Counted from the stretch's first letter, positions 48,411-64,000 are shown. The stretch: DNA of 64,000 bases from an uncultured Acidobacteriota bacterium (GCA_963757355.1 CAVWRG010000003.1:1541120-1605119), one strand, 5' to 3'. The notes: a model not told the origin generated them from the letters alone. Numbers and translations are program-made.

Positions 48411-50071
48411 TACAGATCCGGGTCGAGGCGCGTGGCGATCGGCATCCGCCAGCCGATGCCGAACGCGCGGTCGGTGACCTTGAGCACCGGCGCCGCCTGC
48501 TTTCGCTTGAACTCAGCCCCGCGCACGAGACGCAGCACCCGACGAACTGTCGCCGGATCGAATCCTGCCGCGACGATGTCGCCGGCGGCCTGGTGCTGCT
48601 CGATGTGTCGCAGCAGAATGTCGTCGAGAATCTCGTACGGCGGGAGGGAATCCTGGTCCGTCTGATTCGGCCGCAGCTCTGCCGAAGGCGGCTTCGTCAG
48701 CACCGCCTCGGGAATGACCGCGCGGTGCGACATCTCGTTCAGCCATCGCGCCACCCGATAGACCATCGTCTTCGGAACGTCGGCGATCACCGCGAGGCCG
48801 CCCGACATGTCGCCGTACAGCGTGCAGTACCCGACGGCCAGCTCGGACTTGTTGCCCGTCGTCAGCAGCAGCGATCCCTGCTTGTTGGACAGCGCCATGA
48901 GCAGATTGCCGCGGATGCGCGCCTGCAGATTTTCTTCCGCGACGCCGCGCGCGGTGCCGGCGAACGGTTCGCTCAGCGTGTCCTCCATCACGCGCATGGC
49001 TGGGTCGATCGGCAGCGTGATCGTCTTCATCCCCAGTCCCGCTGCCAGCGTCATCGCGTCGTCGACGCTGCCCTGGCTGGAGAACGGCGAGGGCATCAGG
49101 ACGCCGAGCACGCGATCGGGGCCGAGCGCCTCGGCCGCCACCGCGGCGGTGAGCGCGGAATCGATACCGCCCGAGAGCCCGAGGACTGCGGAGGAGAAGC
49201 CGCACTTCCGCATGTAGTCGCGCGTGCCGAGCACAAGCGCGCGCCAGATTTCCGATTCGACGCCGACGTCTGCCGGCGGCGCAATCGTATGCGTGGCGTC
49301 GAGATCGCAGATGACGACGTCTGCCTCGAACGAGGCGCCGCGCGCGCTCGGCGCGCCGTCGCGCCGGAACGCGCAGCTGCGGCCGTCGAACACCAGGTCG
49401 TCATTGCCGCCGAACTGGTTCACGTACACAACCGGCACAGCGTGCTTGCGCGCCATCGTGCTGAGCATCTGCTCGCGGCGCTGATGCTTGCCGGCCGAAA
49501 ACGGCGACGCCGACAGGTTGACGATCGCGTCGGCGCCGGCGCGCACCAGCTCTTCGATCGGATCGTGGTGATACCGCCGCCGCTTCCAGAAGTCGCGGTC
49601 GTTCCAGATGTCCTCACAGATGCTGATGCCGAGCCGCCGCCCGTTGAGATCCAGCACCTGAGCACCGTGAAACGGCTCGAAGTAGCGGTCCTCGTCGAAC
49701 ACGTCGTAGGTCGGCAGCAGCGCCTTGCGGAAGCGGGGGCCGATCGTCCCGGCCCGCAGGAGGACGACGCTGTTGAACAGCGGGCGTCCTTCGTCCGACG
49801 GATTCGGTTCGGGCAGGCCGACGAGCACCGGTGGCAGCGCGGCCGCGTCTTCCGCGAGCCTGGCGAGCGCCTCCCACGCGCGGCGCACGAATGCGGGATT
49901 CAACAGCAGATCGCGCGGGAGGTACCCGACCATCGCCAGCTCCGGCGTGACGGCGAGGTCGGCCCCTTGATCGGAGGCGATCCGCAAGGCGTCGAGCACA
50001 AGGCGCGCGTTGCCGGCGAAGTCGCCGACGATCGGATTGATTTGCAGCAGCGCGATCTTCAAGGTCAGCAC
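48410..50071 (-). CDS. nadE: glutamine-dependent NAD+ synthase (CN-hydrolase + NAD synthetase domains)
   Basis: GTG 50071: LTLKIALLQINPIVGD.. (nitrilase-like). LGLSGGIDSALTAAVA (PP-loop). The longer ORF to 50182 would overlap the upstream gene. Confidence 0.9.
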   Translation of the reverse strand: MLTLKIALLQINPIVGDFAGNARLVLDALRIASDQGADLAVTPELAMVGYLPRDLLLNPAFVRRAWEALARLAEDAAALPPVLVGLPEPNPSDEGRPLFNSVVLLRAGTIGPRFRKALLPTYDVFDEDRYFEPFHGAQVLDLNGRRLGISICEDIWNDRDFWKRRRYHHDPIEELVRAGADAIVNLSASPFSAGKHQRREQMLSTMARKHAVPVVYVNQFGGNDDLVFDGRSCAFRRDGAPSARGASFEADVVICDLDATHTIAPPADVGVESEIWRALVLGTRDYMRKCGFSSAVLGLSGGIDSALTAAVAAEALGPDRVLGVLMPSPFSSQGSVDDAMTLAAGLGMKTITLPIDPAMRVMEDTLSEPFAGTARGVAEENLQARIRGNLLMALSNKQGSLLLTTGNKSELAVGYCTLYGDMSGGLAVIADVPKTMVYRVARWLNEMSHRAVIPEAVLTKPPSAELRPNQTDQDSLPPYEILDDILLRHIEQHQAAGDIVAAGFDPATVRRVLRLVRGAEFKRKQAAPVLKVTDRAFGIGWRMPIATRLDPDL

Positions 50072-50090
50072 GTTCCGGCGGCGACCGGAC

Positions 50091-50783
50091 CTATTCGGTG
50101 AAGCGGTACTTGAGCAGCACCCAGAGCGCAACGAATCCGGCGACCCACGTGATCTTCTTGCCGTCGCCGTAGCCCCGGCCATCGTACGTGATCGGCACTT
50201 CGTAGACGCGGTAGCCGCGCTTGAAGATCTTGGCGGTCATCTCCGGCTCGATGCCGAAGCCGTCCGACCGCAGCGTCATCGACCGCAGCACCTCGACCCG
50301 CATGGCCTTGTAGCAGGTCTCCATGTCGGTCAGCATCGTGTTGTACAGCACGTTGGTCGCCAGGGTGACGAACTTGTTCCCCAGATAATGCGCGAACATG
50401 AAGGCGCGGTGGCGGCCGAGAAAACGCGATCCGTACACGACGTCCGCGCGCCCCTTCACAATCAGGTCGATCAACTGTGGAAATTCTTCAGGTGAGTATT
50501 CGAGATCGGCATCCTGAATGACGACGATGTCGCCGGTGACGGCGGCGAAGCCGCGGCGGAGCGCCGCGCCTTTGCCCGCGTTGGCTTGTCGCAGCAGCGT
50601 GAAGCCCAGCTCCCGCGTCAGATCGTCGAGGATCTCCGCCGTCCCGTCGCCGGATCCATCGTCGACCACGATCAACTGCAGCCGGAGCGGCACGGCGAGG
50701 ACACGGCGGATGATCGCGTCGATCGTGGTACGCTCATTGTACACCGGCATGACCACCGACAGTAGCGGCCCAGCGTCAGCCAT
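50091..50783 (-). CDS. glycosyltransferase family 2 (polyprenyl-phosphate sugar synthase-like)
   Basis: LSVVMPVYNERTTI, LIVVDDGSGDGT, IQDADLEYSP. One C-terminal TM segment. Confidence 0.85.
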   Translation of the reverse strand: MADAGPLLSVVMPVYNERTTIDAIIRRVLAVPLRLQLIVVDDGSGDGTAEILDDLTRELGFTLLRQANAGKGAALRRGFAAVTGDIVVIQDADLEYSPEEFPQLIDLIVKGRADVVYGSRFLGRHRAFMFAHYLGNKFVTLATNVLYNTMLTDMETCYKAMRVEVLRSMTLRSDGFGIEPEMTAKIFKRGYRVYEVPITYDGRGYGDGKKITWVAGFVALWVLLKYRFTE

Positions 50784-50805
50784 GGAAGACGCCACCGTAC
50801 CACAG

Positions 50806-51804
50806 ATGCGCCACCTGGTCATCCTTGCGCCGAACTGGCTCGGTGATGCTGTGATGGCGCTGCCCGCGATGGCGGACGTGCGCCGCCAGATCCCGCGCGC
50901 GACGATCACCGTGGCCGCGCGTCCGGCGGTGGCGCCGCTGTTCGGCATGGTGCGCGATGTGGACGCGACCATCGTGCTCGCACCGCGCCGCGACGTGTCC
51001 GGATGGCTCGACGCGGGGGCCGAACTGCGAAGCGAGCGCTTCGACGCCGCGCTGCTCTTGCCGAATTCGTTTCAGTCCGCATTCACGGCGTCGCGCGCCG
51101 GCATTGCGGAGCGGTGGGGCTATCGCACCGACTGGCGCCGTGCGCTGCTGACGAAGAGTGTGGCGGCGCCGAGAGGCGTCCATCAGATCGAGTATTACCA
51201 GCACCTCGTACGCGCGCTGGGATTTCCGAGCGGGCCGGCAGAGCCGTCGATCGACGTGACGGCCAGTGCGCGCGACAGCGGACACGGCGCGCTGATGCGT
51301 GCGGGCTGGGACGGCCGCACGGCCATCGTCGCACTCGCGCCTGGCGCCGCGTATGGCGGGGCCAAGAGATGGCCGCCGGCATATTTCGCCGAGTTGGTGC
51401 GCTCACTGCGCGCCGACGGCGTCGTCTGCGTGATGGTCGGCAGCGCCGCCGATCGACGGACCGGCGACGAGATCGACGCGGCCTGCGGCGGTGCCTGCGG
51501 ATTGCTGAATCTGATTGGCGCGACGGACCTTTCCACGCTCGCTGGCGTCCTCGTCCAGTGCCGTTCGCTCGTGTCCAACGATTCGGGCGCCATGCACGTC
51601 GGCGCGGCGGCCGGTGTGCCGGTCACTGCGGTGTTCGGACCGACCAACGATCGCGCCACGCGGCCGCCCGGCGGCGCGCACGTCGTGCTGACGCATCCGG
51701 TCTGGTGCCGGCCGTGCATGCTCCGCGAGTGTCCGCTGGATCATCGCTGCATGCGGGGCGTGAGCGCGAAGGCGGTGCACGAAGCCGCGCGGCGGAACCT
51801 GTGA
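50806..51804 (+). CDS. ADP-heptose:LPS heptosyltransferase (GT9, WaaF-like)
   Basis: MRHLVILAPNWLGDAVMALPA.., APGAAYGGAKRWP, SNDSGAMHVGAA. An alternative ATG at 50782 overlaps the divergent gene's ATG within CCATGG. Confidence 0.85.
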   Translation: MRHLVILAPNWLGDAVMALPAMADVRRQIPRATITVAARPAVAPLFGMVRDVDATIVLAPRRDVSGWLDAGAELRSERFDAALLLPNSFQSAFTASRAGIAERWGYRTDWRRALLTKSVAAPRGVHQIEYYQHLVRALGFPSGPAEPSIDVTASARDSGHGALMRAGWDGRTAIVALAPGAAYGGAKRWPPAYFAELVRSLRADGVVCVMVGSAADRRTGDEIDAACGGACGLLNLIGATDLSTLAGVLVQCRSLVSNDSGAMHVGAAAGVPVTAVFGPTNDRATRPPGGAHVVLTHPVWCRPCMLRECPLDHRCMRGVSAKAVHEAARRNL

Positions 51805-52382
51805 CGGCAGCAGCGGCAGTGTTCGTGGACCGCGACGGCACGCTCATCGAGGAGGTCGGCTATCTCGATCGCGTCGATCGCGTTGCGCTCTACCCGTGGA
51901 CGACCGACGCCCTTCGCGCGTTGAACCGGGCGGGACTCCCGGTGATCCTCGTGTCCAACCAGTCCGGCATCGCGCGCGGCTTTTTCACCGAGGCGGTCGT
52001 CGACGAGGTCCACGCGCGCATGGCGGCGCTGCTCGAAGCCGGCGGCGCGCACATCGACGCGTATTATTATTGTCCCCATCATCCCGATGGCAAGATGCCC
52101 GGCTACGGCCGCGCGTGCGACTGCCGCAAGCCGAAGCGCGGGCTGGTCGATCGCGCGGTCAACGAGCTCAACGTGGATCCCGCTCGCTCGTTCGTGGTCG
52201 GCGATCGATGGCTGGACGTGGGCCTGGCGCAGACGATGGGCGGACGCAGCGTGCTGGTGCGGACGGGATACGGAGCAGACGAGGAACGACGGCCACAGCC
52301 GAATCTCGTCGCGGACGCGATCGTGGACAACTTCGCCGGCGCTGCGAGCTGGATTCTGCGAACCCTCAAATCGGCACGCTGA
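51801..52382 (+). CDS. gmhB: D-glycero-beta-D-manno-heptose 1,7-bisphosphate 7-phosphatase
   Basis: GTGA overlap with the upstream gene. VFVDRDGTL (HAD motif I), VSNQSGIARG, CPHHP...CDCRKP (Zn site), VGDRWLD. Confidence 0.88.
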   Translation: MTAAAAVFVDRDGTLIEEVGYLDRVDRVALYPWTTDALRALNRAGLPVILVSNQSGIARGFFTEAVVDEVHARMAALLEAGGAHIDAYYYCPHHPDGKMPGYGRACDCRKPKRGLVDRAVNELNVDPARSFVVGDRWLDVGLAQTMGGRSVLVRTGYGADEERRPQPNLVADAIVDNFAGAASWILRTLKSAR

Positions 52383-52390
52383 AATCTGAA

Positions 52391-53503
52391 ATGTATATTG
52401 CCCGTTCCGTTCATCCCCTGCCCGGCGAAGCCGAACGCAAGGAGCGGCTGCTGGCGCTCGTGGACGGCTTCACCAGCCGCCGCGTGCTCGTCATCGGCGA
52501 TCTGATTGCGGACGAGTTCATCTACGGCGAAGTTGCGCGCGTGTCGCGCGAGGCGCCGGTGCTGATTCTGAAGTACGACGCGACGGAAATGGTTGCGGGC
52601 GGCGCAGGCAACGCGGCGAACAATGTCGCGGCGCTCGGCGGCCGCGCCGATCTCGCGGGCCTGGCGGGCACAGACGCCGAAGGACGGCGGTTGATCGCCA
52701 GTTTTCCGCGCGGCGTGAATACCAGGCACGTCGTCCGCTCCGCGCCTTATCGGACGCCGGTCAAGACGCGCATTCTCGCCGGCGGCGTGCATTCGTCGAA
52801 GCAGCAGGTCGTCCGGATCGACCGCGAGACCGGCTGGCCCCTGACCGAACAGGTCAGCCGCGCGTTCGCGAAGGGACTCTCGCAGGCGATTGCCGAGTGC
52901 GACGCGGTGGTGCTGTCTGACTATGGATCCGGCCTCGTGACGCCGGAGCTCGCATCCTCGATCCAGACGGCGCTCCTGCGGCGGACCCGGCGGCGTCCGA
53001 TCCCTCTTCTGGTCGATTCGCGCTATCGCCTGCTCGAATATCGCGGGCTCACGACGTGCACGCCGAACGAAGCGGAAGTCGAGGCGGCGGTCGGTATTCG
53101 GATCGACGATGACGCGGAGGCGCTGGAACGGGCGGGGCGCGTGCTGCTGCGCCGGACGGCGGCGCAGGCTGTTCTGATCACGCGCGGCAGCCGCGGCATG
53201 GCGCTGTTCCAGCAGAAGCAGCCGACGATTCACATTCCGATCTTCGGCTCCGACGAGGTGGCCGATGTGACGGGCGCGGGCGATACGGTGATCGCCACGT
53301 TCGGGCTCGCGCTCGCGGCCGGGGCGTCATTTTACGAAGCGGCGTGCCTGGCGAACTATGCGGGCGGGCTGGTCGTGATGAAGCGCGGGACGGCGACCGT
53401 GTCGGCGCGCGAGCTGACCGATGCCGTCACGAGCGATCACGACACGACGCTGGAGAACTGGTCGCAGGAAGGGCCGGCTCAAGGACGGCGGGCAGAACAT
53501 TAA
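52391..53503 (+). CDS. D-glycero-beta-D-manno-heptose-7-phosphate kinase (RfaE domain I / HldA-type, PfkB family)
   Basis: VLVIGDLIADEFIYGEV.RVSREAPV, GGAGNAANNVAALGG, TPNEAE, DVTGAGDTVIA. Confidence 0.88.
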   Translation: MYIARSVHPLPGEAERKERLLALVDGFTSRRVLVIGDLIADEFIYGEVARVSREAPVLILKYDATEMVAGGAGNAANNVAALGGRADLAGLAGTDAEGRRLIASFPRGVNTRHVVRSAPYRTPVKTRILAGGVHSSKQQVVRIDRETGWPLTEQVSRAFAKGLSQAIAECDAVVLSDYGSGLVTPELASSIQTALLRRTRRRPIPLLVDSRYRLLEYRGLTTCTPNEAEVEAAVGIRIDDDAEALERAGRVLLRRTAAQAVLITRGSRGMALFQQKQPTIHIPIFGSDEVADVTGAGDTVIATFGLALAAGASFYEAACLANYAGGLVVMKRGTATVSARELTDAVTSDHDTTLENWSQEGPAQGRRAEH

Positions 53504-53525
53504 ACTTGCAGATTGCGAGCAGACC

Positions 53526-53713
53526 TAGCGCAGGACTTCGGCCTTCGTGTGAAGCTTCGGCGGTTAGCCCTGCCGCACAGACGTGGCGCAGGACTTCGGC
53601 CTTCGCGTGAAGCTTCGGCGGTTAGTTCTACCGTACAGACTGGCGCCGGACTGCCGCTTCGCGTGCCGCATCGTCTGGGAGAGACAGGCGTGGCGCAGGA
53701 CTTCAGTCCTGCC
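53526..53713. repeat. array of about 3.5 degenerate 50-58-bp units ending in a family A REP element
   Basis: Units start GCGCAGGACTTCGGCCTTCG(T/C)GTGAAGCTTCGGCGGTTAG.. at 53528 and 53586. A degenerate unit is at 53643. A canonical GTGGCGCAGGACTTCAGTCCTGCC lies at 53690-53713. Confidence 0.85.
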
Positions 53714-53715
53714 GT

Positions 53716-54189
53716 GTGATGGGAATCATTCTTACTGAATCCGAGCTCGTTGAAGCGGTCGCGCGCGATCGCGCCGCGGCGCGCACTGTCGCGTTTGCCA
53801 ACGGCTGCTTCGATCTGCTTCACGTCGGACACGTACGATACCTGCAGGCCGCCGCGGCGGAGGCCGATCGGTTGATCGTCGCCGTCAACGACGATCGATC
53901 GCTGGCGTCGCTCAAGGGCCCGGGACGCCCGATCCTCAGCGCGCCCGATCGCGCCGAGCTCGTCGCGGCGCTTCGCGGCGTCAACTACGTCGTGGTCTTC
54001 GGCGATGCGACGGTCGAGCGTCTGCTCCGCCTCCTCGAGCCGGACGTGCACTGCAAAGGCACGGACTACACCGTCGAAACCGTGCCCGAACGCGCGGTCG
54101 TGCAGTCCTATGGCGGCCGAACCGCCATCGTCGGCGATCCGAAGCGTCACTCGACGCGGGATTTGCTGTCACGGCTGTCGCGTGGCTGA
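53716..54189 (+). CDS. D-glycero-beta-D-manno-heptose 1-phosphate adenylyltransferase (RfaE domain II / HldC-type)
   Basis: VAFANGCFDLLHVGHVRYL (HxGH cytidylyltransferase motif), VAVNDD, KGTDYT. Confidence 0.9.
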   Translation: MMGIILTESELVEAVARDRAAARTVAFANGCFDLLHVGHVRYLQAAAAEADRLIVAVNDDRSLASLKGPGRPILSAPDRAELVAALRGVNYVVVFGDATVERLLRLLEPDVHCKGTDYTVETVPERAVVQSYGGRTAIVGDPKRHSTRDLLSRLSRG

Positions 54190-55264
54190 TTCTGCTCCGG
54201 AGCGCATTCTGCTGGTGCGTCTCGGCGCGCTTGGCGACATCGTCCATGCGATACCGGTGGCCGCCGCCTTGCGGCGCGCGTTTCCGTCGGCGCGCATCGA
54301 CTGGCTCGTCAGTGCCAAGCACCGCGAGATTCTCGATCTCGTGCCGGTGATCGACCGCCGGCTCGTGATCAACGATCGTCCGTCGGCGAATGTGAGACGT
54401 GATGCGGCGCGCGGCGAGGCGGACGGCGGAACGTCGCTCCTGCAGGCGATCGGTGAGCTGCGGCGCGCGCGCTACGATGTAGCGATCGACCTGCAGGGCC
54501 TGATCAAATCGGCGGTGCTCGCCCGGGCATCGGGCGCGGCTCGCGTCGTTGGCTTCGCGGCGTCGTACGTGCGCGAGAGGCTCGCACGGATCTTCTACAC
54601 CGACGTCTACGATCCTGGTTCGCGCGGCGTACGCGATCACGCTGAGACGCGGCACATCGTCGACATCAATCTCGGCCTGCTGGCGCCGCTCGGCGTGACG
54701 ACCGCCGCGGCAGAGTTCCCGATCGAGCCCGTGAGCTCGACGGTGGCGAAGACGGTTGCTGAGCAGACCGGCGGCCGCTACGCGCTGCTCAACCCGGGCG
54801 CGGCGTGGCCCAACAAGCGGTGGCCGCCGGCGCGATTCGGCGCTGTGGCGCGAGCGCTGCGCGAGCGGCACGGCTTGACGTCCGCCGTGTTGTGGGGACC
54901 CCGCGAAGAGGCGCTGGCGCAGGAGGTGGTCGCCGCATCAGACGGCAACGCTTTGCTGGCGCCGCAGACGACGATTGCGGATCTGGTGGCGCTGGGGCGC
55001 GGCGCGGCGCTGATCGTGTCGGGCGATACGGGCCCCACCCACATCGCGGCTGCAGTCGGCACGCCGATCGTGAGTCTGTTCGGGCCGACGCGGCCGCAGC
55101 GCAACGGCCCGTGGTCGCCGGAAGACATCGCTGTGTCCAGGGACACGATCTGCCAGTGTCATCACCTCCGGAGATGCACGAGGCCGTCGATGTGCCTGCT
55201 GGATATTCAAGTGGACGAAGTGCTGCAGGCGATCGATCGGCGGCTCGCAGGTGAGCGGAGATGA
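54182..55264 (+). CDS. ADP-heptose:LPS heptosyltransferase (GT9, WaaC-like)
   Basis: GTG 54182 overlaps the upstream stop. ILLVRLGALGDIVHAIPVAAAL, IDWLV, NPGAAWPNKRWP, SGDTGPTHIAAA. Confidence 0.85.
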   Translation: MADSAPERILLVRLGALGDIVHAIPVAAALRRAFPSARIDWLVSAKHREILDLVPVIDRRLVINDRPSANVRRDAARGEADGGTSLLQAIGELRRARYDVAIDLQGLIKSAVLARASGAARVVGFAASYVRERLARIFYTDVYDPGSRGVRDHAETRHIVDINLGLLAPLGVTTAAAEFPIEPVSSTVAKTVAEQTGGRYALLNPGAAWPNKRWPPARFGAVARALRERHGLTSAVLWGPREEALAQEVVAASDGNALLAPQTTIADLVALGRGAALIVSGDTGPTHIAAAVGTPIVSLFGPTRPQRNGPWSPEDIAVSRDTICQCHHLRRCTRPSMCLLDIQVDEVLQAIDRRLAGERR

Positions 55265-55809
55265 TGGCGGCGCGCCTCGCGCGGCTTCGCGTGCCGCTCG
55301 GCTTCGTGTTCGGCATCGCGGTGCTGTGGCTCGCGCAGCCGACGGCGGCAACATTGGCGGCTGGCGTCCCGGTCGCGGTGGCGGGAGAATCGCTGCGCGT
55401 CTGGGCGGCGGGTCACCTCAACAAGTCGCGCGAAGTGACCTCGTCTGGTCCCTACCGATGGTTTGCGCATCCGCTGTATGTCGGGTCGTCGATCATGGGC
55501 GTCGGCTTGGCCATTGCGTCGGGCAGCGTGGCTGTGGCGCTGCTGATCGCGGTGTACCTGGGAGCGACGCTCACCGCGGCAGTCACGAGTGAGGAGGCGT
55601 TTCTGCGCCGGACCTTCGGTGATCGGTATGATCGGTATCGTCGGAGTCGGCTGGCGCCAGGCGTCGATTCGCAGCGCCGCTTCACGTTCGCGCAGGCGCT
55701 GGCCAATCACGAGCAGCGCGCGATTGCGGGTCTGGTGGCGGCCGTGTTGCTGCTCATCCTGAAGGCAACGTATAATGGTGCGTTTTGGTGGGCAGCAGCT
55801 GGCCCATGA
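55261..55809 (+). CDS. ICMT/PEMT-family membrane methyltransferase
   Basis: Multi-TM protein. GPYRWFAHPLYVGSSIMGVG and EEAFLRRTFGDRYDRY are the family's C-terminal signature. Confidence 0.8.
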   Translation: MMAARLARLRVPLGFVFGIAVLWLAQPTAATLAAGVPVAVAGESLRVWAAGHLNKSREVTSSGPYRWFAHPLYVGSSIMGVGLAIASGSVAVALLIAVYLGATLTAAVTSEEAFLRRTFGDRYDRYRRSRLAPGVDSQRRFTFAQALANHEQRAIAGLVAAVLLLILKATYNGAFWWAAAGP

Positions 55810-55813
55810 GTAA

Positions 55814-55885
55814 GGGCGGTTAGCTCAGTGGTAGAGCACCGGCTTTACACGCCGGCTGTCACAGGTTCGAATCCTGTACCGCCCA
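55814..55885 (+). tRNA. tRNA-Val (anticodon TAC)
   Basis: GGGCGGT TA GCTC AGTGGTA GAGC A CCGGC TTTACAC GCCGG CTGTC ACAGG TTCGAAT CCTGT ACCGCCC A. No encoded CCA. Confidence 0.9.
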
Positions 55886-56005
55886 CTAAAAGTACGCAAC
55901 TGGCAGTTGGTGATTTGGTCAGTTGGTGAATTGGTGATTCGAATGCACCGATTCGCTGATTCACGAGTTCGCCGATTCGCCAACGACGGATGCACGTTCC
56001 AAATC

Positions 56006-56273
<268 letters not shown>

Positions 56274-56281
56274 AAGTCATA

Positions 56282-56620
56282 CTAGGTGTTGGGGATAGCG
56301 GATTTCGCATCCGCCGTCTCCAACATTTCTCCACGACCGCGGGGCACTCCCGAGCAATCGAGCAACCGAATCGCCATGTCCAGTGCAGCGGGACTGAGGT
56401 GCATGTACCGCTGTGTCGTTGAGAGATCCTTGTGCCCTGCCAAATCTTGGATGGCTCTGGCAGGCGCACCCCGCATGGATAGATGCGAACAGAATGTGCG
56501 GCGCAACCGATGGACGCCACTGTCACCGAGCTGAGCTCGTCGTGCCGCCCGCTCGACGTGATGTTTCACCATGTCCGCCGAAAGCGAAGCACAACAGGCG
56601 GGTATGACGTACTCAGCCAA
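56282..56620 (-). pseudogene. tyrosine recombinase/integrase, C-terminal catalytic fragment only
   Basis: ..GVHRLRRTFCSHLSMRGAPARAIQDLAGHKDLSTTQRYMHLSP (HxLR box, GH, catalytic Tyr). The frame is closed by TAG about 50 nt upstream. No box I Arg or N-terminal SAM-like domain is present. Confidence 0.75.
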
Positions 56621-57338
56621 TCTCGGACTGCCGCAACTTCTGCTTGTCTTGGCCGTGATCCTCGGGATCTACGGATTCATGCGACTGCGTTGATGCGAGA
56701 GTGGAAAGCAGCCCAATTGGCGGGCTAACAAAACGAGCTACCGATGGTAGTAAACGAGGATCGGTTTCGGGGAACGGTCGGCTCGGATCGGTTCGCCTTT
56801 CGACAGGCGTATCCGGAAAGGGCCAGAATCGCCCCGATCATCAGCACGGCTACAAGAAGGCGCCGCATGATTCGGATTATAGCCCACAGGCGACGGGCCT
56901 TTCAGGGGGAATGAGATGACGAAACGCTGGGAGCGCTCACACGCGAACGGTTGGACCGCAACGGTCCAGGCCGACGGTGAGTTCTTCAACACGTCGGCGC
57001 ACGAAGTCGGCGTTCCCGCCGCGCAGGCATGTCAGTCAGGGCATCGTTGACTCACGCCTGGCGCAACAGGTTGCCGATGGGAGAGTGCCAGCGCACGATT
57101 GTCAGTGCAGAGGGTGGGTTGAGCGAATGGAGACTATCCGTTGACGCGCGTCGAGGAATTCACGAGCCGTGATTTGACAAGGCACATTTACCCTTAACAC
57201 TGGATCGAGCCAACTCAAGGGCATTCGATCAGGGGATGTCGATCCCTGTGACAATCCGACGCTGATTCCGCTTGCGCCTGCGTTGCGTGTGGTTGCGGCT
57301 GCAGGCCGCGATCTAATATCCCACAAAGGGAGGTGACG

Positions 57339-57992
57339 ATGAGACTTGTCTTCAAAAAGGGTTTTGGGCTCGATACGATACCCTCTGACATCGCGATGTG
57401 GTTGCTAGAGCTTGAGAGCAGCACATACGCGTTTGTCGCGGATCAGGTGCCCGTTTCGATTTCCAGAGGGACCTTCGGCAACACTGACCAAGAACGTAAT
57501 TCAATCAATCAGTTCGTCTCAACGAGTCGTCGGCCATTCGGGCACAAGATTCAAACGTTGGATGTCACCTTTGAGATGGACGGGGCCATTCCTGAGGCCA
57601 TTAAGTCAGGCCAACATCAAATCGGTTCCGCCGATGCATTTGTCGAACCTTACATCGATCCCGGTTTTCACGCGGTGAGAGCGTTTGTCGAGACTTATCG
57701 GGACTGCAAATATCTCAGATATCGTGGCCAAGAACGTTGGACAAACCACCAAACTCTACTCCCACGAGTCACCGAGCAGGAATTCAGGACGTTGTTGTTT
57801 TACACCCTCGATGTAGGCGATGGTGAACCGTATGTCGGGTCTTTCAGCGACGGGAGGCTGAAGGTTAGCAACTTCTTAGGTAGTGATTTTACTGAGCAAC
57901 TTCGGCGCTTAAGCATCCTGTGCCAGCGGTGCGAAAGTTCATTGAAGAAGCGTGGGAACGTCTGTTTGATGAAGATTTCTCTGGTGCGGTAA
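57339..57992 (+). CDS. hypothetical protein (island gene 1), no recognisable family
   Basis: ATG preceded by GGGAGGTG Shine-Dalgarno. 217 aa. The last 30 or so codons overlap the next ORF in another frame and look non-native (..LCQRCESSLKKRGNVCLMKISLVR). Confidence 0.55.
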   Translation: MRLVFKKGFGLDTIPSDIAMWLLELESSTYAFVADQVPVSISRGTFGNTDQERNSINQFVSTSRRPFGHKIQTLDVTFEMDGAIPEAIKSGQHQIGSADAFVEPYIDPGFHAVRAFVETYRDCKYLRYRGQERWTNHQTLLPRVTEQEFRTLLFYTLDVGDGEPYVGSFSDGRLKVSNFLGSDFTEQLRRLSILCQRCESSLKKRGNVCLMKISLVR

Positions 57993-58294
57993 TTTACTCG
58001 GCTATTGCCATCGAGCGAGCGATGACCCGATTGTTGCGCAAAGAACTTGTGAACCGGGCCGTTGGGACAGCCTCGCAGATCGGGAAGGTCATCGAGGATA
58101 CCAGTAATCGATCGCTTTGCACCGTAGTGTTGGGTCTCCTTGGAATCGCGGATGACGGGTTGCGCCAACGGATGGTCAGTCTGTTTGAGCTCAGGAATTC
58201 GTTGGCTCACGGTCAGAAGTCAAACGTTCATCGTGAGGAGGCTGAGGCATCGATTCAGACATCTGAATCATTCCTTACGATTGCCTGGACCTAA
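57920..58294 (+). CDS. HEPN-like domain protein (Rx4H motif), either stand-alone or the frameshifted C-terminus of island gene 1
   Basis: About 124 aa, all-helical pattern: FIEEAWERLFDEDFSGAVIYSAIAIERAMTRLL.. then LFELRNSLAHGQ (R-N-S-L-A-H, i.e. Rx4H). GTG start. The frame is open from 57896. Confidence 0.55.
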   Translation: MPAVRKFIEEAWERLFDEDFSGAVIYSAIAIERAMTRLLRKELVNRAVGTASQIGKVIEDTSNRSLCTVVLGLLGIADDGLRQRMVSLFELRNSLAHGQKSNVHREEAEASIQTSESFLTIAWT

Positions 58295-58610
58295 GTCAAC
58301 GCGGGGCCTCGCAGATTCCCATCAGACATCGAACTCTCAATGCTCCTGCCACATACGAGACCACGCTCCCTTTGGTGTCACAGGGAGCGGCGACGGACAT
58401 GTGCCGGGACTGGCGGCACGCACGCAGGCGACAGGAGCGGACGACTGCGACAGTTGTGGGAGTGGAGCCCGCCTTTGAGTTGATCGAGGTGGCTAAAGAG
58501 GAACGCGGATATTTCGCGGACAGGTAACGATAAACCTCTCAGCTGCTCTCACTTGCAGAAGCACCTCCGGTTAGCAACCCGTTGTGCATCTACGCTATAG
58601 TCGTCTCGCC

Positions 58611-59879
58611 ATGGCAAAGCCTTTACAGCGACTGATCGTTTTTGTATCGGGCACCAGTGAGGCAGAGGCCGAGAAGGCTGCACTGAGGCGAATTGTCGAT
58701 GACATCAATCGGCGCGTGGAAAAGACGCACGGTATCACTCTGAGAGTGGTGGGTTGGCCGGACGATGGGCGACCGGGTGTTAGCACTGATCCTCAAGCAG
58801 AACTGAATCGCCAGTTTTCAGACTTCGACGTCTACATCGGAATGCTAGGCTCGAAGTTCGGATCACCCACGCCGAGGGCCGGGTCTGGCACAGAGGAGGA
58901 GTTCGAGTCGGCAATGCGCCGTTTTCAGAATGATTCAACTTCCGTACGGGTTCTCTTTTATTTCATGCGGACCGCTGCAGACCCATATTCGATCGACGCG
59001 GATCAGTTAAAAAGGGTCCAGCAGTTTCGGGAAACTTTGCCCTCCCGTGGCGTGGTCTATCGAGACTTCCACGATACCGCTAGCTTCACGAATCTTGTGC
59101 AGGACCACCTCTACTCAATCATAGAGGACGATTGGCGAGGTGATCGTTGGTCTGCTGTTGGTTCGGTACCCAGTCTCACTGGTGCCGTTCGTGACACCGA
59201 ACACCTGACCCACGACGGTGCGGGTCCCGCTGGTGCTTCCGAAGTTGATGTCAGTCTATCGAAGGAAGACGGCGAAGACGAATCTGGGTTTTTGGACCAT
59301 GTAGTGGCTTTCCACGAGGCAGTTGCTGTATTTACGGCGATTGTGGGAGAGATGCGCCATGACATGGACCGGATCAATGAACAGGTCCGCGCTCGCGCGA
59401 CAGAAGGCACCACGCTGAACGAAGAATTTAAGAGTGTCAAACATGTAGGAGGCAGTAGGGCGCAGCAGGAATTTGCCTCTAAGGCACGCATGAATGTCGA
59501 TGGGGCGGCAGCCAATCTCGACGATTTCGCTAGCGCGACGGCCGGGAATCTTGAGAAGTTCAAAGACAGTAATCGCTCGATGTTTGGCAGTTTGAGGGCG
59601 GGTTGGGGATCCGGATCAGAATTTGTGACTGAGCAGAACAGGAACGACAACGTGCGTGCGCTCCGCCAGTTGATTGCAGTCATCGAGAAAACAGGCGAGA
59701 GCATGACCGCTTTTCAGGCTAGCGTGAGCCGATTGCCTCTGTTGACGGGAAAAATCAAGCGAGCGCGTCGGCGGACAGCGCAGGTGTTGGGCGAGTTGAT
59801 AGCCGAATTTGCGTTGTCAGCCAATGAAGCACAGCGGATCGTTGATGAAATGGAGGGCGGTGTGAGTCCCGTTTCGTGA
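58611..59879 (+). CDS. DUF4062/TIR-like N-terminal domain protein with long helical C-terminal region (island gene 3)
   Basis: RLIVFVSGTSEAEAEKAALRRIVDDINR..FDVYIGMLGSKFGSPTP.AGSGTEEEFESAMR..VRVLFYF parallels the DUF4062 pattern VFISST..E.R.A...AI....D.yigIiG.RYGS....G.S.TE.EY..A. Residues from about 230 to 422 are helix-rich with no recognisable motif. Confidence 0.6.
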   Translation: MAKPLQRLIVFVSGTSEAEAEKAALRRIVDDINRRVEKTHGITLRVVGWPDDGRPGVSTDPQAELNRQFSDFDVYIGMLGSKFGSPTPRAGSGTEEEFESAMRRFQNDSTSVRVLFYFMRTAADPYSIDADQLKRVQQFRETLPSRGVVYRDFHDTASFTNLVQDHLYSIIEDDWRGDRWSAVGSVPSLTGAVRDTEHLTHDGAGPAGASEVDVSLSKEDGEDESGFLDHVVAFHEAVAVFTAIVGEMRHDMDRINEQVRARATEGTTLNEEFKSVKHVGGSRAQQEFASKARMNVDGAAANLDDFASATAGNLEKFKDSNRSMFGSLRAGWGSGSEFVTEQNRNDNVRALRQLIAVIEKTGESMTAFQASVSRLPLLTGKIKRARRRTAQVLGELIAEFALSANEAQRIVDEMEGGVSPVS

Positions 59880-60041
59880 AAGGCGACTGCGTGGATCGGC
59901 TGCCCAGGATATGTCCGCGTTTTGTCCGTAGGCTATCTTCGCCTTCCCGCCAAGTCACGCCCGAACGCAGACTAAGAATTGGCCAATTGTATAGGTGACA
60001 ATTAGGAGGGGCTGGTGCCCCACAACGTGCTCAGACGGCGT

Positions 60042-63000
60042 TCACTCGTACGAATTAGCAATGATGTTAAGCACCTTGTCGAGGTACTGGCCGACCTGCT
60101 TCGCGTCCGTCTGCGATCGAAGTTCGTACGAGATCATGTTGAACCAGTCGATTCGTGTCCTTGGACGCCGTCTGACCAATTCATCCAGCACGACTTGCCT
60201 CAGAAGGCCATCTCCCGAACCTGACTCGGGAAACGCCGCCTTGATGTCCGTGTCCCTCAGGTCGACGAGCTGCTGGCGAAGGGAATCAACCCGCTGCGCC
60301 CTCTCCAATTCCTTGCGGTAATCGGCGTCGCTGTTCAGCAAATCGTCGATCCGTTTGAGGAGTCGCTTGATTTCCGTGCTTCGACTCTTGAACCAGTCCG
60401 TTGACCAGATGCGGTGAATCTTCCAGCCCTGGTTCTCAAGAATTTCCTGTCGAAGGCGGTCGCGGTCGCGAGCAGAGCGTCCGGAATGGTAGCTTGCGCC
60501 GTCGCACTCGATTCCCAACAGGTACACGCCGGGCTTCGCAGGATGACGGACGCCAATGTCGATAAAGAAACCGGCTACGCCTACTTCTGGGACGACCTCG
60601 AATCCCTTTTCCCTGAGCACGGCGCCCACAGCGCGCTCAAAATCGTTCGACGACTGCCGCCCGCCATCGTCAGCGGCTTCCAGGATGCCGGTACGCGCGA
60701 ACGTCAGATACTGCTTGAAGGCGCGAAGGCCCCAGGCGCTGCCGCTATGGACCTGAATCTTTTCGGGGTCAATCGAGCTAAAGACTTCCGTCCTCTTCTT
60801 CGACCGCGTGAAAAGCACGTTGAGCCGTCGATGTCCATTCGGGCCGTTGATCGGGCCGAAGCGCTGGTATTGGTTTCCTTTTGCATCCGGCCCGTAGGTC
60901 GCCGAAATAAAGATCACGTCACGCTCATCGCCCTGAACGTTCTCGAGGTTCTTGATAAATAGCGGCTCCGACCCGCTCTCCATTCGTTCCTGATAAGCCA
61001 GCGCGAACGGCTCGGTCGTCAATCGGCGGTCGAGAAGGTCCTCGATCAGTTCTCGTTGCTCATAATTGAGCGCGACGACGCCGAGAGATTCATTCGGCCG
61101 ATTGTGCATGTGATCCAGAACAGCATCGACGACGGCCTCCGCCTCGGGCATATTGCGACGCTCGTCAAACACGCCTCGCGGAACGTGGTGATATTTGACG
61201 CCGAGGCTCGGGGATTCGTGATATGCGGACGGAAAGATGATCAGGTCTCCCTGATAGAACTCGCGATTGGAGAAGGCAATGAGGCTGTGGTGTCTCGACC
61301 GATAGTGCCACCGAAGCCGTCGGACAGGTTGGTACATCGTGCTGGCAATGTCGAGAATGCTTTCGCCTTCCTCTATTGCCGTCCGCTCGTCTTCATCCTC
61401 AAGGTCGTCATTATCGAAGGTGACTCTCTGGAAGAAATTTGTCGGCGGCAGCTGTTTTGGGTCGCCGACGATGACCAGCTGGCCACCCCTTGCGATAGAG
61501 CCGATGGCGTCCTCCGGCTTGAGCTGCGATGCCTCGTCCATGACGACGAGGTCAAAACGCAGTCTCTCCGGAATGAGGTACTGGGCTACCGAGAGCGGCC
61601 CCATCATGAAGCAGGGCTTCATGGCCTGGAGTGCGGTTGCAGACCGGCGCACCAGTTGTCGAATGGGAATGTGGCGTTTCTGCTTGCTGATCTCGTGCGT
61701 GATGAGCGCAAGCTCGCTCCAGCCTTTGACGGGACCGCTTTGATGACCGTATGGGATTTTGCGACGGTCGATGATGGCGGCGGCGCGTTCGCGATACAGT
61801 CGGATCGCTTCCTTGTCTGCCTTGGCGAACTGCTCCCGGACTTGGTCCTGGGTGGTGCCGCTGAAACCAAACAGATCGGCATGATCGGCGAAGGCGTATC
61901 GCGCGAGCGTGTTGTAAAAGACGAACTTGAAAGCGGTAGGAAGATGGTCTGGTTCGATGTGCCCGGCGTCAGCAAGACTCGTCAGCTTGTCGAGGCCGCG
62001 GCCTGCTCCGTCGGCTCGCGAGCGGATGAAGTGAAGCCATTGCGCCAGTTCGTCGCGGTTTTCGAGCGCGTGTGCCGCTCTCTTGGAAACATCCTCAAGT
62101 CTGTCGCCCTCATCGGCATGCCAGTCCAAGGATGACGAGCGGCTGCGAATGTCCTGGCGGCATTCCGCGATATCACGTGCGGCCTGCGCCGCTTGTTCAA
62201 GCCATTGAGACAACTGACGCAGGCGCGGCTCGTACTCGTCAGAGAGAAGCCAATCCGTCGCCGTCCCAGGAAGTGCGCTCTTCGCCAGGCGCTCGGCAAA
62301 ACGAACGGCGGCTTCAACCGGTCTCAGGTCGCTATCGATCTCGCAGTAGGAGTTGCCTAACATGTTGCGAACGTGCGCGTGAGCATCGATGCGGGCGATA
62401 CTCGCGCGATGACTCTCCGCCGTCTTCAACAGGCCGCCGATAGAGCTGATGGGAAGATCCGCCTTCAGGTCGGCCATCAGAAGACCCGCGATGGTTTCCT
62501 CCAGAAATGTGTTCGCCTCTTTCAACGCGTTCCGCAAGTCATCCAATGATCTTGGCGATGAGCCGTTCGGCCGCGCAAGCATCGGAAGGTCCAGGACGGC
62601 GCTGTGGAGGTCGTCAAGCGTCGCGCGATTGCTCTGATGCCCAGGCAGCGCCGCGCTGACCGCGTTGAGGCGCTCCGTTCTGGTCTTCAGAAGAAGATCT
62701 CGCAGCGCAACAGAAGAGTCATCATTGTCGGGGAGCAGAGCAAAGACTTGCTGGTACCAAGCGACGATGACTTGCCACTCATTCCATCTGGTCTGGCTCC
62801 CCTTGAAATGCGCTCCAAGAAGCTGCTGGCATCCCGCATCAGCGTCAAAGTCAGTCTGGGCCTGCAGGTGGTCGGCGATGGCCCGCAGGTGTTGCGCCAT
62901 AGATTTCCGCGATGCTTTCGCCGCGTGTCGCGCCAGAGCTTTGTAGGCGCGGCGGCCACTTCGATAGTCGCGGCCGAACAATCGCTGCCAGATGCCCGCG

Positions 63001-64000
63001 CCTTCAATCGCGGCTGCATGAGCGCGAAGTCGGACCGCGTCAGTATCCGCGAGCACCGACAGGTTGAAAGATTCGTCGAGCTTCCGATGTTCTTGCTCCA
63101 GTTCGCGCGTTCTGGCGGCGGCATCCTCGATGACTCGACCCGCGCCGTCCGACTCAAGGTTTGGTGTCCTTAAGTGAAACGCCTCGAAGGGTGCGCTTTC
63201 GAGCGCGCGCAGGCAGTCAAGAAGCCGTCGGATGTCTTGGGTGTCGAACGACACCTGAATTCCGAGAAGCGCGGTGAGGGCGGCAAGACAACTTTCTGCT
63301 TTTGAAAGAAGCTTCTCCGCCGCCCGGCCCCGTTCGAGGTCGTGGCGAAGCCGAAGGGAGTCGCTGCCCTCATGACCGCGGGCGGTCAGGACCGCGACCA
63401 TCTGGGCGAGGAATTCCCCGACATCCTTTCTCAGGAGCGGAGTGGAATTGCCAGCTGTGGTGGCAGCGGCAAGCGCCTGCCGTGTTGTGGAGGCATTCTC
63501 CACCGCTTCCATGAAGTCCAGCAGCGCAGCACGTGCGCGCGCATCCCGGCAAGGTACGAGGACATGTGACGGAAGCGGTTCGTTCACATCGGGCAACATG
63601 GTCAAAAGATCCGTGGCCATGTTGAGACCGTGCAAGGTGCAGGGCACTGCCACACCGACGTCCGCCAATGCCCGCTGCACGGGCGCGGCGTTTCCCACAG
63701 ATGAAACGAACCCCTCCAACAGGTCGCAGATGCGCTCCTGATCTTCAAAGCTGAGGGTCGCATTAATCCATGCCCACGGGTGCAGCTCAAGGCTCGAACA
63801 AGCCCGCAAAACGCCGCCGAGGTGCTGGGCATGTACGGCCAGGAAGTGCTCCGTTTGTGCGACGTCGGTGGGCGTAAATTGAATAACTGTCGCCAGGAGC
63901 AGCTTCTCCACGAGCGAGCGGTCAAACCGCAGTTCCTGGTACGCAACATCGCGCGCCCACAGAATGTCGAACACCGTCGCGTTGAAAGGCTGAAGCTCCT
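60042..64000 (-). CDS. large SF1 (Upf1/DNA2-like) helicase fused to Vsr/DUF559-type endonuclease and DUF3320-like tail; N-terminus beyond window
   Basis: Helicase motifs DLVVMDEASQ (II), VIVGDPKQLPP (III), LRWHYRSRHHSLIAFSN, VQGDERDVIFIS, RLNVLFTRSKKR (VI). Nuclease LLGIECDGASYHSGRSARDRDRLRQEILENQGWKIHRIWSTDWF. The frame remains open at the window edge, so Walker A is not seen. Confidence 0.85.
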   Translation of the reverse strand, partial: ELQPFNATVFDILWARDVAYQELRFDRSLVEKLLLATVIQFTPTDVAQTEHFLAVHAQHLGGVLRACSSLELHPWAWINATLSFEDQERICDLLEGFVSSVGNAAPVQRALADVGVAVPCTLHGLNMATDLLTMLPDVNEPLPSHVLVPCRDARARAALLDFMEAVENASTTRQALAAATTAGNSTPLLRKDVGEFLAQMVAVLTARGHEGSDSLRLRHDLERGRAAEKLLSKAESCLAALTALLGIQVSFDTQDIRRLLDCLRALESAPFEAFHLRTPNLESDGAGRVIEDAAARTRELEQEHRKLDESFNLSVLADTDAVRLRAHAAAIEGAGIWQRLFGRDYRSGRRAYKALARHAAKASRKSMAQHLRAIADHLQAQTDFDADAGCQQLLGAHFKGSQTRWNEWQVIVAWYQQVFALLPDNDDSSVALRDLLLKTRTERLNAVSAALPGHQSNRATLDDLHSAVLDLPMLARPNGSSPRSLDDLRNALKEANTFLEETIAGLLMADLKADLPISSIGGLLKTAESHRASIARIDAHAHVRNMLGNSYCEIDSDLRPVEAAVRFAERLAKSALPGTATDWLLSDEYEPRLRQLSQWLEQAAQAARDIAECRQDIRSRSSSLDWHADEGDRLEDVSKRAAHALENRDELAQWLHFIRSRADGAGRGLDKLTSLADAGHIEPDHLPTAFKFVFYNTLARYAFADHADLFGFSGTTQDQVREQFAKADKEAIRLYRERAAAIIDRRKIPYGHQSGPVKGWSELALITHEISKQKRHIPIRQLVRRSATALQAMKPCFMMGPLSVAQYLIPERLRFDLVVMDEASQLKPEDAIGSIARGGQLVIVGDPKQLPPTNFFQRVTFDNDDLEDEDERTAIEEGESILDIASTMYQPVRRLRWHYRSRHHSLIAFSNREFYQGDLIIFPSAYHESPSLGVKYHHVPRGVFDERRNMPEAEAVVDAVLDHMHNRPNESLGVVALNYEQRELIEDLLDRRLTTEPFALAYQERMESGSEPLFIKNLENVQGDERDVIFISATYGPDAKGNQYQRFGPINGPNGHRRLNVLFTRSKKRTEVFSSIDPEKIQVHSGSAWGLRAFKQYLTFARTGILEAADDGGRQSSNDFERAVGAVLREKGFEVVPEVGVAGFFIDIGVRHPAKPGVYLLGIECDGASYHSGRSARDRDRLRQEILENQGWKIHRIWSTDWFKSRSTEIKRLLKRIDDLLNSDADYRKELERAQRVDSLRQQLVDLRDTDIKAAFPESGSGDGLLRQVVLDELVRRRPRTRIDWFNMISYELRSQTDAKQVGQYLDKVLNIIANSYE

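Follow-up and report, generated by a model that had tools for sequence, protein, structure and literature searches.

Organisation of the locus

Two overlapping open reading frames occupy positions 57339-58294 on the plus strand of the window, by which is meant the whole stretch of 64,000 nucleotides that was analysed. ORF A (57339-57992) encodes 217 amino acids and is closed by a TAA codon at 57990-57992. Frame B has a TGA codon at 57893-57895 and is open from 57896; counted from GTG 57920 to the TAA at 58292-58294, ORF B encodes 124 amino acids. The two ORFs overlap by 73 nt (57920-57992), and the open frames A and B share 97 nt (57896-57992). ORF B includes the sequence LFELRNSLAHG, with the arginine encoded at 58193-58195 and the histidine at 58208-58210. 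The coordinates, the Shine-Dalgarno sequence of ORF A, the GTG start, the overlap and the LFELRNSLAHG sequence had all been described in the original prediction, and all were found in the sequence. ATG 57339 is favoured over GTG 57333 as the start codon because homologues begin with M[KR]LTFKK and the window has MRLVFKK. No Shine-Dalgarno motif was found in the 20 nt upstream of GTG 57920. The features of the locus and its surroundings are listed in Table 1.

Table 1. Positions of the features at the locus and in the neighbouring part of the window
Feature	Position	Strand	Basis
Shine-Dalgarno sequence GGGAGGTG for ATG 57339	57328..57335	+	Direct sequence reading; 3 nt spacing to ATG
5' part of the gene, frame A: N-terminal alpha/beta domain, residues 1-190	57339..57908	+	Family HMM
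Lesion interval with a net -1 shift: one base missing or an equivalent 3n+2 gain	57893..57919	+	HMM tiling and base-insertion test
Out-of-frame tail of ORF A, 27 codons (LSILCQRCESSLKKRGNVCLMKISLVR) and stop	57909..57992	+	Unlike any family member
3' part of the gene, frame B: end of interdomain linker, whole HEPN domain and stop	57902..58294	+	Family HMM
RNSLAH, Rx4H catalytic motif of the HEPN domain	58193..58210	+	Sequence and family alignment
tRNA-Asp (56006-56082) with two additional 3'-end copies downstream	56006..56278	+	ARAGORN and direct repeats
Tyrosine integrase remnant, C-terminal 112 amino acids only	56282..56620	-	Pfam Phage_integrase positions 105-169 of 172, E 8e-15
DUF4062 protein, 431 amino acids, intact	58584..59879	+	Pfam DUF4062, 25.4 bits; PADLOC PDC-S60, 4.6e-31
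Hhe-like helicase-nuclease, intact, runs off the window end	60042..64000	-	NCBIfam Hhe_antiphage, PADLOC

The GC content drops in this part of the window (50000-64000), from approximately 0.65-0.70 (about 68%) before ~55500 to 0.53-0.58 at 57000-61000, a step-down that identifies the island as DNA of foreign origin. Direct repeats at 56058-56090, 56152-56184 and 56246-56278 follow each other with an exact spacing of 94 nt within a 94-nt tandem duplication, and the repeated tRNA 3' end reads GG[T/C]TCGAGTCCCGTC[G/A]ACCCCGCCA. Judged by their sequence, the copies of the tRNA-Asp 3' end look like stacked att-site scars of repeated integration. The gene at 57339-58294 probably travels with a defence island that was acquired horizontally and inserted at tRNA-Asp.

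A stretch of 44 nt taken from the 3' end of the integrase remnant is repeated in L010, a separately assembled contig of 10.2 kb, where the second copy lies 9972 nt away at the far contig end and is 82% identical. This recurrence points to another integrase gene, and to tandem islands as the borders of the block of HEPN, DUF4062 and Hhe genes.

The N-terminus of the DUF4062 protein matches the first 169 of the 906 positions of the PADLOC candidate PDC-S60, and no assignment was obtained for its C-terminal 250 amino acids. Among the other contexts of the HEPN family described below, only one (L012) has a DUF4062 gene close to the family member, as a fragment ~2.7 kb away from it, and the neighbouring DUF4062 gene is island cargo and not a conserved partner. 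The Hhe-like gene scores 1023.7 bits with the NCBIfam model Hhe_antiphage, which has a cutoff of 2000, and matches Hhe (5.7e-211) and PDC-S37 (1.7e-257) in PADLOC. Its product, 1761 amino acids in L010, consists of DUF4011, AAA_11, AAA_12 and MTES_1575 and also matches the NCBIfam model ProA; the protein is perhaps not Hhe itself but a divergent relative. Truncation of this ORF at 63974 was rejected, since that position is only the first start codon in a listing of 60042..63974 and the frame is open to the window end.

A probable single gene in two frames

The arrangement had been given two readings in the original prediction: a two-gene module in which a toxin-like HEPN gene is translationally coupled to a partner, or one protein of approximately 320 amino acids split by a 1-nt indel. 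A word-indexed search with ORF A rendered only one relative, P0002, in which a single chain is 45% identical to residues 1-189 of ORF A and then 55% identical to frame B. Alignment-based searches raised the number of relatives to 15 and then to 25. Almost all of these are 319-331 amino acids long and align from end to end; among them P0004 is 68% identical to frame B. All full-length homologues (approximately 25) are fused single polypeptides, MFQ5714011.1 being an example of an intact one.

A family HMM was built from 28 intact members, with the window rows left out. It matches frame A at profile positions 2-194 (nt 57336-57908, 212.9 bits) and frame B at positions 194-321 (nt 57902-58285, 168.1 bits), and the two frames thereby tile the family profile exactly, with no gap and nothing missing. 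The homology in frame B starts at 57902, which is 18 nt (six codons) upstream of GTG 57920. Addition of one base anywhere in 57893-57919 results in an uninterrupted ORF of 318 amino acids scoring 390-394 bits; the same HMM gives 406-452 bits for intact members from other loci. The pattern is that of a frameshifted gene, with homologues in a single frame and both frames of the locus covering the family profile without loss. The last codons of ORF A had been suspected to be non-native, and the family homology in frame A does end at 57908 (residue 190), after which the final 27 codons (57909-57989) match nothing.

Separate synthesis of ORF A, as a regulator or antitoxin with the N-terminal domain, and ORF B, as a HEPN toxin translated from GTG 57920, agrees with several properties of the locus. 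The break is located exactly in the interdomain linker and leaves both domains whole, GTG 57920 stands ahead of the first HEPN helix, and both parts are undegraded, which would fit a tolerated or functional split too. At least one other member, P0023 (205 amino acids), is followed by a separate gene on the same strand, and HEPN-only proteins of 115-161 amino acids are present among the family matches. However, GTG 57920 has no Shine-Dalgarno motif whereas ORF A has a strong one, an overlap of 73 nt is unusual for translational coupling, the homology of frame B extends six codons beyond the GTG, and the final 27 codons of ORF A are unrelated to the family. Other truncated members are broken at different positions, so there is no conserved split architecture, and the full-length members are all fused. 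The original prediction noted that ORF A has no MNT nucleotidyltransferase motif, and this agrees with the lack of any Pfam match for ORF A (E up to 1); identity as an MNT antitoxin was rejected on the same ground. With no Shine-Dalgarno motif at the GTG, no conserved split position and no MNT-type partner, a functional two-gene module is very unlikely.

The full-length protein could also be produced by a programmed -1 ribosomal frameshift or by transcriptional slippage, as a regulatory device. The shift needed is indeed -1, and the 97 nt shared by the frames permit such a mechanism in principle, but neither a slippery heptamer of the form X XXY YYZ nor a homopolymer occurs across 57893-57992. 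In addition, the coding sequence of the homologues lies in one frame, and other broken members have their frameshifts at sites that are not conserved. Programmed frameshifting was rejected because the slippery site is absent and has hardly any probability left.

The single-protein reading is thus supported by the fused homologues, the HMM tiling and the restoration by one base, together with the absence of a Shine-Dalgarno motif at the GTG and of a slippery heptamer. It is highly likely that 57339-58294 is a single gene of ~318 residues belonging to a rare uncharacterised family, frameshifted and most likely a recently dead gene of the defence island. A net loss of one base in the interdomain linker (57893-57919) would shift the reading frame, and translation from ATG 57339 would consequently give the N-terminal domain and 27 nonsense residues. 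The HEPN part is left without a ribosome-binding site, which means that the system is most likely dead here. For genome annotation, the two hypothetical genes are best replaced by one entry, a frameshifted gene or pseudogene; a frameshifted copy is in itself ordinary.

The C-terminal HEPN domain

The best Pfam match of ORF B is PF18735 (RiboL-PSP HEPN), with an E value of 0.0038 and 17.6 bits against a cutoff of 28.4, and other HEPN families score lower. PF18735 is matched by 17 of 30 family members (best E 1e-05), none of which reaches the gathering score, and other members match the Swt1, Apea, MAE_28990 and canonical HEPN models of Pfam. NCBIfam gave no HEPN-domain match for the ORFs and the 30 family members, and a profile sequence search of PDB gave a single chance-level match (E 0.87).

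An AF2 model of the homologue P0004 (pLDDT 90.7) has helices at 198-321. When this model was compared with PDB using Foldseek, the top 27 matches were all HEPN proteins, with a probability of up to 1.0 and a target TM-score of up to 0.75. All matches with significant probability were HEPN structures: 5yep, 2q00, 1ufb, 6m6u, 2hsb, 4nqf and the sacsin HEPN domain. Foldseek comparison of the full-length model with viral structures gave no credible match.

Poor conservation of the Rx4H residues had been named beforehand as a possible objection to the HEPN assignment. Among 28 homologues the arginine is conserved in 100%, and the following asparagine and the histidine in 96% each. An invariant glutamate (E227 in P0004, found in AIERAM in ORF B) is located in the long helix ahead of the motif; the exact Ex3[KR] spacing was not seen. 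The hallmark of HEPN domains is Rx4-6H with a polar residue (N, D or H) right after the arginine (PMC3710099). Considered as sequence features, the motif and the invariant upstream glutamate fit the catalytically active HEPN RNases described there. The C-terminal half is, as far as the predicted structure and the motif can tell, a HEPN domain at fold and motif level with a sub-threshold sequence match. The assignment made in the original prediction is thereby upheld by the conserved motif and by the fold match of the P0004 model, and no curated sequence threshold is reached.

The N-terminal domain

Residues 1-190 of the window copy were modelled by AF2 with a pLDDT of 88.9. The model opens with a beta-alpha-beta-beta-alpha-beta unit, after which come a helix of 30 residues and a beta-hairpin. 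Foldseek comparison with PDB gave no credible fold match, the probability being at most 0.14. Ferredoxin-like look-alikes such as S10, PII and SP1 were discarded because probabilities of this size (<=0.14) are too low to name a fold. Neither ORF A nor the 30 family members gave a match for this domain in Pfam, NCBIfam, PADLOC or PHROG. Invariant charged or aromatic residues in the domain include FKK 5-7, E24, E52, R65, R121, K124, Y125, R129 and W134, and their conservation points to a specific binding or catalytic surface.

Mutation or assembly error

Two other assemblies contain the locus, and these and the window may share reads or sample and are perhaps not independent: L010, a Logan assembly of run ERR10755946, has 99.96% identity to the window across 7.7 kb and zero differences in 57339-58294, and L009 (ENA ERZ25039534) is noisy, with 98.5% identity and 26 gaps over 7.8 kb, and has two substitutions and no indel in the gene. 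The longest base run in the lesion interval 57893-57919 is 2. Elsewhere in the window, 20 large core ORFs are complete and distinct by Pfam, among them AcrB (14-1019 of 1021 profile positions), NAD synthase and CheA. Two similar indels had been reported elsewhere in the window; these were not found, the 20 large open frames tested with Pfam being separate or intact genes. The window copy retains 55 of the 57 residues that are conserved to >=85% in the family, which indicates that the lesion, if real, is recent.

A sequencing or assembly artefact would mean that the 318-aa gene is intact in the organism and that one base was dropped from the consensus in 57893-57919. The complete restoration of the ORF by a single added base speaks for this explanation, and so does the retention of 55 of 57 conserved residues in both halves, as expected of a functional gene. 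The 26 gaps of L009 over 7.8 kb show that indel-prone data exist for the organism. The homologues P0023, P0030, P0032, P0034 and P0028 also look frameshifted, at varied positions, which noisy metagenome assemblies could explain. Flye-style contig names ('contig_NNNNN') of related records and the MFD label on one related MAG suggest assemblies that we take to be based on Nanopore long reads. The dominant error type of Nanopore assemblies is indels. On the other hand, there is no base run longer than 2 in the interval, and the k-mer-based L010 and the noisy L009 share the frame structure, with no indel across the 956-nt gene. The neighbouring genes of 1761 and 431 amino acids and the 20 large core ORFs are uninterrupted as well. 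An artefact is accordingly regarded as unlikely, though not negligible.

The presence of the frameshift in two other assemblies, the lack of a homopolymer and the intact large neighbours indicate a probably real, recent inactivation, and a real mutation is considered likely.

The only indel relative to the comparison assembly is at 56811, where both L010 and L009 carry an extra C compared with the window. The position lies between the integrase remnant and the HEPN gene, outside any clear gene, and the difference could be a window consensus error or a strain difference.

Distribution and genomic contexts of the family

An exhaustive profile search among 1.84 billion representatives rendered 102 proteins with E up to 0.001, of which ~20 are full length and the rest fragments. 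Family members are ~320-330 amino acids long and start with an alpha/beta domain of ~190 amino acids, which a short helical linker connects to a C-terminal HEPN domain whose R-N-x3-H motif is intact. Labelled members come from a Candidatus Scalinduaceae MAG and an Acidobacteriota MAG, and the labels represent Planctomycetota and Acidobacteriota.

A scan of the genome collection gave one family locus, L011 5998-6909, in the Acidobacteriota MAG MFD05176.bin.1.177 (contig CAWCQS010000012.1). Here the gene is split over at least three frame segments, which cover HMM positions 2-95, 140-190 and 233-309, and the copy is thus a second inactivated or badly assembled member. Tails that appear to be out of frame, at differing positions, were also found in P0023, P0030, P0032, P0034, P0028 and P0038.

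The association of the family with defence islands is based on approximately eight contexts, which vary considerably. The gene for P0008 is found with a type III-like restriction-modification pair, a UvrD helicase, an integrase and a D5 primase, and locus L005 has MamI and N6-methyltransferase restriction-modification genes, UvrD and PD-(D/E)xK. A TIR-NTP-transferase protein is encoded near P0009, and fragments of TIR_2, HsdM and DUF4062 are present at L012. The surroundings of P0125 contain an integrase, a serine recombinase and an IS element, and those of L004 and L007 were uninformative. A conserved partner was looked for among the flanking genes of L001, L004, L005 and L006, which were dissimilar both mutually and to window positions 56000-60000. 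The varied defence and mobile contexts without a common neighbour suggest that the family behaves as a solitary cargo gene.

At L001, a short contig, downstream of the gene for P0002, a small protein with an R-x4-H-like motif (KLRNTTGHN) is encoded at 1801-2262 on the minus strand. Judging from the motif, this may be a second, unrelated HEPN-type gene.

Comparison with known systems

The RiboL-PSP-HEPN group (PF18735; Anantharaman et al. 2013) is a clade distantly related to AbiD/AbiF (PMC3710099). It is the best HEPN profile for the family and shares the R-N-x3-H motif and the all-helical bundle. In contrast to that group, the family has no fusion to endoribonuclease L-PSP and no ParB neighbour at any locus examined, and its N-terminal domain is unrelated to Pfam families.

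MNT-HEPN systems consist of two genes, in which a nucleotidyltransferase antitoxin AMPylates the toxin. HepT/MntA of Shewanella (SO_3166/SO_3165; 5yep, 6m6u) provides the solved structures closest to the HEPN half, with a Foldseek probability of 0.99-1.0 and a target TM-score of 0.53-0.60, and has the same Rx4H RNase site. The family differs in that its upstream part lacks a nucleotidyltransferase signature and, in all intact homologues, is joined covalently to HEPN.

CARF-HEPN proteins (Csm6/Csx1) have a comparable layout with an N-terminal regulatory domain and a C-terminal HEPN domain, and weak matches to PADLOC CARF_HEPN models were obtained for 7 of 30 family members (best 2.6e-05). These matches are, however, confined to the HEPN part, the model of the N-terminal domain has no CARF or Rossmann-like match in PDB, and there are no CRISPR-Cas genes nearby. 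In PADLOC-DB v2 as a whole there was no significant whole-protein match, only weak matches to the HEPN region.

HepS of Gifsy-1 (PMC13043305) and the anticodon nucleases PrrC and RloC (PMC3710099) are abortive-infection systems composed of one HEPN protein. As in the present family, the gene stands alone in mobile or defence islands, and the HEPN effector is joined to, or acts with, its own sensing function. At the sequence level, however, no relationship was detected, and the N-terminal domain is not an ABC ATPase of the PrrC/RloC kind and is not similar to HepS either.

Proposed function

The intact protein might be a latent endoribonuclease acting as a one-component abortive-infection or toxin-like defence RNase. 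The N-terminal domain would keep the HEPN RNase inactive or sense an infection cue, and on activation HEPN dimers would cut RNA of the cell or the phage in a metal-independent way, leading to growth arrest. RNase activity and a defence role of the intact protein are inferred from the properties of Rx4-6H HEPN domains (PMC3710099) and by analogy with one-protein HEPN abortive-infection systems such as HepS (PMC13043305).

Fusion of HEPN domains to varied partners in defence islands is already known. The novelty lies in the N-terminal domain and in the architecture, which curated libraries do not recognise. The family combines a standard HEPN RNase module with a well-folded, unrecognised N-terminal domain, is solitary in defence and mobile islands of several phyla, and is a reasonable candidate for a defence gene. 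If it is a defence gene, it adds a new sensor domain to the one-component abortive-infection RNases. A tentative extension, to which we give modest odds, is that the family constitutes an undescribed one-protein abortive-infection system with an alpha/beta sensor or auto-inhibitor of a HEPN RNase, and that the broken copies here, in the Acidobacteriota MAG and among the database members reflect recurrent counter-selection of a toxic gene and not noise.

A further set of ~20 proteins of ~300 amino acids (P0042, P0044, P0055-P0059, P0064, P0069 and others) share only the C-terminal HEPN domain with the family. They have different N-terminal halves of ~180-200 amino acids, also without a Pfam match, and more than one unrecognised N-terminal domain appears to have been joined to the HEPN module.
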